Shown piece after piece: positions 85 through 967 of a stretch of DNA of 967 nt. The notes below the pieces were generated by a model. The model saw only the letters and a list, made by a program, of their open reading frames with translations, did no database searches and was not told the DNA's origin. Numbering within the stretch: the stretch's first letter is position 1; each line of letters starts with the position of its first letter. The DNA is from Escherichia coli. GTDB lineage: Bacteria > Pseudomonadota > Gammaproteobacteria > Enterobacterales > Enterobacteriaceae. Location: the NCBI RefSeq assembly GCF_003334385.1, contig NZ_QOWN01000140.1. One strand, 5' to 3'. The position numbers and the translations under genes are program-made.

Positions 85-581
85 TGCCTCCATCATTACG
101 AAAAGCCGTTGCTGCTGCTATTGGTGGCGGAGCAATTGCTATAGCATCAGTGTTAATTACTGGCCCAAGTGGTAACGATGGTCTGGAGGGTGTCAGCTAC
201 ATACCATACAAAGATATTGTTGGTGTATGGACTGTATGTCACGGGCATACAGGAAAAGACATCATGCTCGGTAAAACGTATACCAAAGCAGAATGCAAAG
301 CACTCTTGAACAAAGACCTTGCCACTGTCGCCAGACAAATTAACCCGTACATCAAAGTCGATATACCGGAAACAACGCGCGGCGCTCTTTACTCATTCGT
401 TTACAACGTGGGTGCTGGCAATTTCAGAACATCGACGCTTCTTCGCAAAATAAACCAGGGCGATATCAAAGGCGCATGTGATCAGCTACGTCGCTGGACA
501 TATGCTGGCGGTAAGCAATGGAAAGGTCTCATGACTCGTCGTGAGATTGAGCGTGAAATCTGTTTGTGGGGTCAGCAATGA
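84..581 (+). CDS. R: SAR (signal-anchor-release) endolysin, T4-lysozyme-like muramidase (glycoside hydrolase family 24), phage 21 R-type
   Basis: Complete 165-aa ORF in the provided track. The N-terminus MPPSLRK is followed by a Gly/Ala-rich weakly hydrophobic segment ([20 protein letters not shown], residues 8-27), the hallmark of a SAR domain. The lysozyme catalytic triad is in its canonical spacing: E35 (gag 186..188), D44 (gat 213..215), T50 (act 231..233). From memory the protein is near-identical to phage 21 R. It sits directly after a holin and before Rz/Rz1. Confidence 0.95.
105..164 (+). other. SAR domain of the endolysin (residues 8-27), a releasable N-terminal transmembrane segment
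   Basis: [20 protein letters not shown] is rich in Gly and Ala and only weakly hydrophobic, as expected for a segment that inserts in the membrane and is released on depolarisation. It contains no cysteine. Confidence 0.8.
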
Positions 582-967
582 ACAGAGTAACCGCGATTAT
601 CTCCGCTCTGGTTATCTGCATCATCGTCTGCCTGTCATGGGCTGTTAATCATTACCGTGATAACGCCATTACCTACAAAGCCCAGCGCGACAAAAATGCC
701 AGAGAACTGAAGCTGGCGAACGCGGCAATTACTGACATGCAGATGCGTCAGCGTGATGTTGCTGCGCTCGATGCAAAATACACGAAGGAGTTAGCTGATG
801 CGAAAGCTGAAAATGATGCTCTGCGTGATGATGTTGCCGCTGGTCGTCGTCGGTTGCACATCAAAGCAGTCTGTCAGTCAGTGCGTGAAGCCACCACCGC
901 CTCCGGCGTGGATAATGCAGCCTCCCCCCGACTGGCAGACACCGCTGAACGGGATTATTTCACCCTC
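578..967 (+). CDS. Rz: i-spanin Rz (inner-membrane spanin subunit), 3' end truncated by the window edge
   Basis: ATG at 578..580 overlaps the R stop (ATGA). Frame 2 is open to the end of the window and translates to [130 protein letters not shown]. It has an N-terminal transmembrane segment (residues ~4-24, type II topology), then a charged helical, coiled-coil-like periplasmic region, and a Cys at residue 99 matching the lambda Rz periplasmic cysteine. It is absent from the ORF track, presumably because no stop codon falls inside the window. Confidence 0.92.
784..790 (+). promoter_or_regulatory. Shine-Dalgarno sequence for Rz1, embedded within the Rz coding sequence
   Basis: GAAGGAG is a near-consensus SD, 7 nt upstream of the Rz1 ATG (798). 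The same bases encode K-E in the Rz frame. Confidence 0.65.
798..967 (+). CDS. Rz1: o-spanin Rz1 (outer-membrane lipoprotein spanin subunit), embedded in the +1 frame of Rz; 3' end truncated by the window edge
   Basis: ATG at 798..800 is preceded by a strong Shine-Dalgarno GAAGGAG (784..790) with a 7-nt spacer. Frame 3 translates to [56 protein letters not shown]. This is a signal peptide with a lipobox V-V-G-C (Cys20 at 855..857) followed by a proline-rich mature region, diagnostic of Rz1. The gene lies wholly inside Rz in a different frame, the classic embedded spanin architecture. Confidence 0.9.
846..857 (+). other. Rz1 lipobox (V-V-G-C), signal peptidase II site with Cys20 as the lipidated residue
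   Basis: The Rz1 signal peptide [19 protein letters not shown] ends in VVG followed by Cys, fitting the lipobox consensus [LVI][ASTVI][GAS]C. The +2 residue is Thr, not Asp, consistent with outer-membrane sorting. Confidence 0.75.

Follow-up and report, generated by a model that had tools for sequence, protein, structure and literature searches.

Positions 578 to 967 of the analyzed window, a 967-base stretch of Escherichia coli DNA, almost certainly represent codons 1 to 130 of the spanin gene Rz, with codons 1 to 56 of Rz1 embedded in the +1 frame. The two products would form a lambda-type two-component spanin, which would form the final unit of a lysis cassette of the phage-21/DLP12 type, carried by a lambdoid E. 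coli prophage, and would be expected to act as in lambda. The mechanism is carried over to this copy because of the near identity to the lambda proteins. The system itself is already known, namely a textbook two-component spanin, nearly identical to that of lambda, in a common E. coli prophage cassette.

As read from the open reading frames, the window contains four genes, all on the plus strand, in the order holin, endolysin, Rz, and Rz1:

Positions 1 to 84, plus strand: C-terminal 27 codons and stop codon (TAA, 82 to 84) of a phage-21-type class II holin (pinholin, essD/S21 type), from the translation.

Positions 84 to 581, plus strand: SAR (signal-anchor-release) endolysin of the R21/RrrD type, 165 amino acids, an open reading frame whose start overlaps the holin stop (TAATG).

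Positions 578 to 967, plus strand: Rz, i-spanin (inner-membrane spanin subunit), codons 1 to 130 of 153; its ATG at 578 overlaps the stop of the endolysin gene R (ATGA).

Positions 798 to 965, plus strand: Rz1, o-spanin (outer-membrane lipoprotein subunit), codons 1 to 56 of 60, an open reading frame in the +1 frame of Rz.

The holin matched the PHROG holin families 9876 and 20, and the endolysin matched PHROG 7 (endolysin). The N terminus of the endolysin is Gly/Ala-rich and hydrophobic, with the best Kyte-Doolittle window at residues 8 to 26. Scans of the whole window found no Rfam family and no promoter or terminator above chance, and all antisense open reading frames within 578 to 967 were at most 38 amino acids long and without support. 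NCBIfam assigned none of the holin, Rz, and Rz1 to a family; because the library has a gap for these proteins, this blank is not counter-evidence.

The window is 100% identical to positions 1268288 to 1269254 of the E. coli SCU-104 chromosome, the only record at that level of identity. Matches of at least 99% were found in 1,023 E. coli records, and similar sequence occurs in 5,186 of 5,426 E. coli genomes, at a median of three places per genome. The gene order in the SCU-104 record is quuD, a porin gene, essD, rrrD, rzpD, iss/bor on the opposite strand, nohD, large terminase, head-tail joining, and portal, an arrangement that identifies a lambdoid prophage carrying a lysis cassette of the phage-21/DLP12 type. 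The porin gene, annotated as ompC (minus strand; L001 2198-3280 of the SCU-104 record), lies between the antiterminator gene quuD and the holin gene. Just 3' of Rz, the iss/bor serum-resistance lipoprotein gene (L001 5071-5364) runs in the opposite direction. These two genes look like lysogenic-conversion cargo on both sides of the lysis cassette.

Because the window covers only the first 130 codons of Rz and the first 56 of Rz1, the intactness of both 3' ends rests on this identical public record. A premature stop or a frameshift in Rz or Rz1 downstream, the outcome that the initial annotation had set against its own reading, is absent there: Rz is complete at 153 amino acids, ending ...QKYINEQCR with Cys152, and Rz1 is complete at 60 amino acids, ending ...SERG. 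An intact Rz is expected to run on past the window as ...RERLITMQKQLEGTQKYINEQCR*.

The most serious alternative is that Rz and Rz1 survive intact as relics of a defective prophage resembling DLP12, with the right architecture but never expressed or used, in which case the earlier description of a functional complex would be overstated. We consider this unlikely. RefSeq does apply the names of the cryptic K-12 prophage DLP12 (essD, rrrD, and rzpD), the porin gene between Q and the holin is placed as in DLP12, and, with similar sequence so widespread and present several times per genome, many copies must be prophage remnants. However, nohD and the large terminase, head-tail joining, and portal genes follow the cassette in the identical record with no obvious truncation there, the genome of phage 2G7b carries an identical Rz/Rz1 gene (462 of 462 nucleotides), and none of the four lysis genes (holin, endolysin, Rz, and Rz1; SCU-104 record) contains a disabling change. 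In the part covered by the window, no defect is visible in the lysis cassette of this prophage. The prophage as a whole could be silent or defective. Judging by sequence identity, the spanin complex should be functional, as the initial annotation expected.

For Rz, the frame from 578 to 967 is free of stop codons to the end of the window (130 codons), and 129 of these 130 residues are identical to lambda Rz. Full-length Rz matched the Pfam family PF03245 (Phage_lysis) at 3e-54, with residues 29 to 153 aligned to model positions 1 to 126 of 126, and PHROG 13 ("Rz-like spanin") at 1.2e-79, with residues 1 to 153 covered. A match to Pfam DUF2681 was weak only (E, 0.001). Comparison with the lambda and phage 21 homologues places the start of Rz at the ATG at position 578. 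A GTG lies 12 nucleotides 5' of it (L001 4566-5039, SCU-104 record) and would add MGSA to Rz. The following features were placed within the frame:

Positions 587 to 649, plus strand: N-terminal transmembrane anchor, residues 4 to 24, with Cys14 and Cys18, from hydropathy and helical in the AF2 model.

Positions 656 to 838, plus strand: coiled-coil domain 1 (CC1), residues 27 to 87, from the AF2 helix, heptads, and the published COILS map.

Positions 872 to 874, plus strand: Cys99 codon (TGT), in the predicted nonhelical segment between the two helices (residues 88 to 120), from the sequence and the AF2 model.

Positions 875 to 922, plus strand: L2 hinge, residues 100 to 115, from low pLDDT and the literature.

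Positions 938 to 967, plus strand: first 10 codons of coiled-coil domain 2 (CC2; residues 121 to 130), from the AF2 helix and the published CC2.

The best 19-residue Kyte-Doolittle window of Rz covers residues 4 to 22 (mean, 2.63) within an uncharged run from 4 to 23, and there is no second hydrophobic segment. Rz is thus predicted to have a single N-terminal transmembrane anchor, which fits type II topology, the orientation being a prediction. In lambda, this transmembrane domain can be swapped for an artificial one (PMC5295617). The remaining 129 residues of the full-length protein are 34% charged and include one Pro and three Gly. The AF2 model, built on 23 homologues, has a helix at residues 3 to 87 (pLDDT above 90), a nonhelical stretch at 88 to 120 (pLDDT below 50 at 103 to 117), and a second helix at 121 to 152. 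Heptad a/d occupancy in CC1 is modestly above that of shuffled sequences, 4% of which reach the observed value. The published map of lambda Rz, based on COILS, places the transmembrane domain at 1 to 24, CC1 at 27 to 87, and CC2 at 121 to 150 (PMC5295617), and the model, Pfam, and PHROGs agree with it on the anchor, CC1, hinge, and CC2. In lambda, hinge residues 100 to 115 can be replaced by Ser-Gly repeats, and residues 143 to 151, the C-terminal part of CC2, are implicated by genetics in Rz1 binding (PMC5295617).

Thus, the i-spanin architecture claimed in the initial annotation, an N-terminal transmembrane segment containing C14 and C18 followed by a charged helical region, was borne out. 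The two checks it had proposed gave concordant results: alignment with lambda Rz left S2N as the sole difference over 153 residues, and coiled-coil and transmembrane prediction on the full-length protein gave one transmembrane segment and two helices with a flexible linker, matching the published map. Its placement of the Rz1-interacting C terminus outside the window was likewise right, since residues 143 to 151 lie past codon 130. In the SCU-104 sequence, CC2 residues 131 to 150 and the C-terminal end with Cys152 make up the part of Rz beyond the window.

It is very improbable that Rz acts as a murein endopeptidase rather than as a membrane-fusing spanin subunit, even though many matches are annotated as "prophage endopeptidase RzpD" or "Rz endopeptidase". 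The Pfam search found no protease domain in Rz, only PF03245, the predicted AF2 fold consists of two long helices with a disordered hinge, and published work favors complex formation and membrane fusion (PMC5295617; PMC6139136). A PDB sequence search with Rz returned no solved spanin structure; its sole similarity was a weak match (E, about 2e-4) to the membrane-anchored helical stalk of ATP synthase subunit b, which we read as compositional or coiled-coil resemblance, not homology.

The embedded o-spanin gene carries the signals expected of a lipoprotein subunit, at the following positions:

Positions 785 to 790, plus strand: Shine-Dalgarno sequence AAGGAG, 7 nucleotides 5' of the Rz1 start, from the sequence; the phage 21 record has a ribosome-binding site annotated at the corresponding position.

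Positions 846 to 857, plus strand: lipobox VVGC, residues 17 to 20, with the Cys20 codon at 855 to 857, predicted to be the lipidated first mature residue, from the sequence.

Positions 882 to 884, plus strand: Cys29 codon (TGC), predicted homotypic disulfide site, from the sequence and the literature.

Positions 891 to 905, plus strand: pentaproline P32 to P36, start of the proline-rich fusion motif, from the sequence and PMC5295617.

Rz1 spans Rz nucleotides 221 to 403 of 462 (L001 4798-4980, SCU-104 record) and thus lies wholly inside Rz. Its N-terminal region, MRKLK, is followed by a hydrophobic core and then the lipobox, the cysteines are residues 9, 20, and 29, and the mature protein contains 10 Pro. 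Cys20, predicted to be lipidated, and Cys29 are therefore both present, as had been stated. The +2 residue of the mature protein is Thr, not Asp. In lipoproteins this residue governs Lol sorting, and Thr is compatible with an outer-membrane location. Position 802 of the window is G (T in lambda), a change that is silent in Rz (Ala75, GCG/GCT) and converts Rz1 residue 2 from Leu to Arg. With this Arg, which phage 21 also has, the signal peptide gains a positive charge in its N-terminal region.

Rz1 matched Pfam PF06085 at 3.7e-20, with residues 20 to 59 aligned to model positions 1 to 40 of 41, and PHROG 3198 ("Rz-like spanin") at 3.7e-30. The length of the frame was dropped as evidence, since a +1 ATG-initiated frame that long (60 codons or more) turned up in 42% of the synonymously recoded versions of Rz and in 13% of those with shuffled codon order. 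In the Stx1 and Stx2 phages and in Shigella phage SfI, the Rz genes are about 78 to 88% identical to that of the window at the DNA level. They retain the transmembrane domain, a Cys99 equivalent (NATC or KAVC), a Cys near the C terminus, and the embedded +1 frame with lipobox Cys20. Rz1 was judged to be real because of the profile matches, the signal features, the near identity to lambda and phage 21, and the retention of both frames in these relatives. That the +1 frame is a chance open frame and Rz the only real gene, as its readily reached length and the lack of an Rz1 annotation in the RefSeq, 2G7b, and SfI records might suggest, can be given practically no credence against the two profile matches (3.7e-20 and, rounded, 4e-30), the strong Shine-Dalgarno sequence, the signal peptide, lipobox, and proline-rich mature domain, the survival of the frame and Cys20 in the Stx phages and SfI despite many substitutions, and, for lambda, the genetics by which it has already been refuted: Rz1 mutants are lysis defective, among them Cys20 substitutions (PMC5295617, Table 3).

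The absence of Rz1 from annotation is an error of the records, and so is the naming of Rz as an "endopeptidase" in many of them. The gene (rzoD/Rz1) is intact yet unannotated in the 100%-identical RefSeq record as well as in the phage 2G7b and SfI records. Both errors matter when lysis cassettes are scored automatically.

The cysteines call for a change of emphasis. In-window Rz contains three, at residues 14, 18, and 99 (codons 617 to 619, 629 to 631, and 872 to 874), and translation of 578 to 967 places Cys99 in HIKAVCQSV (residues 94 to 102), exactly the context given in the initial annotation. According to PMC5295617 and PMC6139136, the disulfides of the lambda proteins are homotypic and not between Rz and Rz1, with Rz-Rz bonds at C99 and C152 and an Rz1-Rz1 bond at C29; the same sources describe the C99 bond as irrelevant for lysis, which needs either C152 or Rz1 C29. 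The earlier claim that periplasmic Rz cysteines form spanin disulfides thus holds insofar as C99 forms an Rz-Rz bond in lambda, and its emphasis on C99 calls for refinement. Since lysis needs Rz C152 or Rz1 C29 and C99 is dispensable, the in-window cysteine that would predict function is Rz1 Cys29, not Rz Cys99. Among Rz C99, Rz C152, and Rz1 C29, Cys99 is the least informative in this respect.

Conservation was evaluated in a broader set of relatives. An initial search for homologues gave relatives of at least 87% identity only, which were too close for judging Cys conservation, and a search of 50% clusters was used instead. Several cluster representatives (P0128, P0141, P0146, P0163, P0171, and P0178) were left out as chimeras that switch between the Rz and Rz1 frames. 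Such chimeras most likely reflect indels introduced by sequencing error in short metagenome contigs, and they make the Rz family look more diverse than it is. Among 23 full-length Rz homologues, down to about 42% identity, Cys99 and Cys152 were each at least 90% conserved. The membrane residues Cys14 and Cys18 were not conserved in divergent homologues.

The overlapping frame does not account for the conservation of Cys99. The Rz1 linker (residues 25 to 30), which overlaps the Cys99 codon, is replaceable in lambda (PMC5295617), and the Rz1 frame over this codon differs in the Stx phages (GSTPPAPVPC versus TSKQSVSQC). Because the linker is both replaceable and variable, the conservation stems from the Rz frame. 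The hinge around Cys99 varies freely. That Cys99 is so well conserved is a little unexpected for a residue reported to be dispensable. This is the only loose end of the analysis, and it concerns the whole family rather than this window. It is possible, although on balance doubtful, that across the family the C99 bond contributes to fitness in a way that standard lysis curves miss. The bond might, for instance, shield the hinge against periplasmic proteases, fix the register in which the two parallel Rz chains pair, or act as an intermediate on the Dsb-dependent route to the C152 bond.

The embedded Rz1 of SfI (L008 600-791) has the lipobox Cys only, with no equivalent of Cys29. Under the lambda rule, spanin function in SfI should rest wholly on the C-terminal Rz cysteine.

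Taken over from lambda, the mechanism would run as follows. The N-terminal helix of Rz (residues 4 to 24) would fix the protein in the inner membrane, and its two coiled-coil helices would extend into the periplasm, with Cys99 carried by the flexible hinge between them. The proline-rich mature domain of Rz1 would bind the C-terminal end of Rz, so that the complex reaches across the periplasm through the mesh of the peptidoglycan. Both subunits would be covalent homodimers, Rz joined through C99 and C152 and Rz1 through C29; lysis would require the C152 bond or the Rz1 C29 bond, and the C99 bond would be dispensable, as in laboratory assays. With the peptidoglycan degraded by the endolysin, the complex would collapse at the hinge and the inner and outer membranes would fuse, removing the last barrier to phage release. 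Folding at the hinge and fusion of the two membranes after peptidoglycan degradation constitute the model put forward for lambda (PMC5295617; PMC6139136). For the Rz/Rz1 pair described here, we infer the same disruption of the outer membrane by fusion.

Comparison with known systems places the spanin closest to lambda and phage 21. In lambda (NP_040646 and YP_001551744), the proteins are likewise 153 and 60 amino acids long, the +1 layout is the same, with Rz1 starting at Rz nucleotide 221, and the Rz start overlaps the upstream endolysin gene through ATGA. All cysteines are shared (Rz 14, 18, 99, and 152; Rz1 9, 20, and 29). The Rz/Rz1 genes differ at 3 of 462 nucleotides, which leaves Rz identical at 152 of 153 residues (S2N) and Rz1 at 59 of 60 (L2R). 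Upstream, however, the genes are of other types: the canonical holin S105 and the R transglycosylase in lambda, and in the window a pinholin and a SAR endolysin, which are unrelated to them in sequence. Relative to lambda, the cassette is a mosaic in which a phage-21-type holin and endolysin are joined by ATGA to a near-lambda Rz/Rz1 gene.

Phage 21 (S21-R21-Rz21-Rz1-21; OL657228) shares the whole arrangement of pinholin, SAR endolysin, and embedded spanins followed by bor/iss on the opposite strand. Its Rz1 is identical at 60 of 60 residues and its Rz at 150 of 153 (K45T, A50V, and M54I), and R, annotated there as a SAR endolysin, differs at 1 of 165. Divergence is greatest in the holin gene, the full 71-residue protein (SCU-104 record) differing from S21, an annotated pinholin, at 10 positions. 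Unlike the SCU-104 prophage, which has the porin gene between Q and the holin, phage 21 has tRNA genes there. In the case of the K-12 DLP12 cassette (essD-rrrD-rzpD-rzoD), RefSeq gives the DLP12 gene names to the window-identical record, where the holin gene is annotated as essD, and a protein annotated as "murein endopeptidase; DLP12 prophage" (P0065) is 90% identical to the Rz described here. DLP12 is a cryptic remnant, whereas the record that matches the window runs on into terminase and portal genes.
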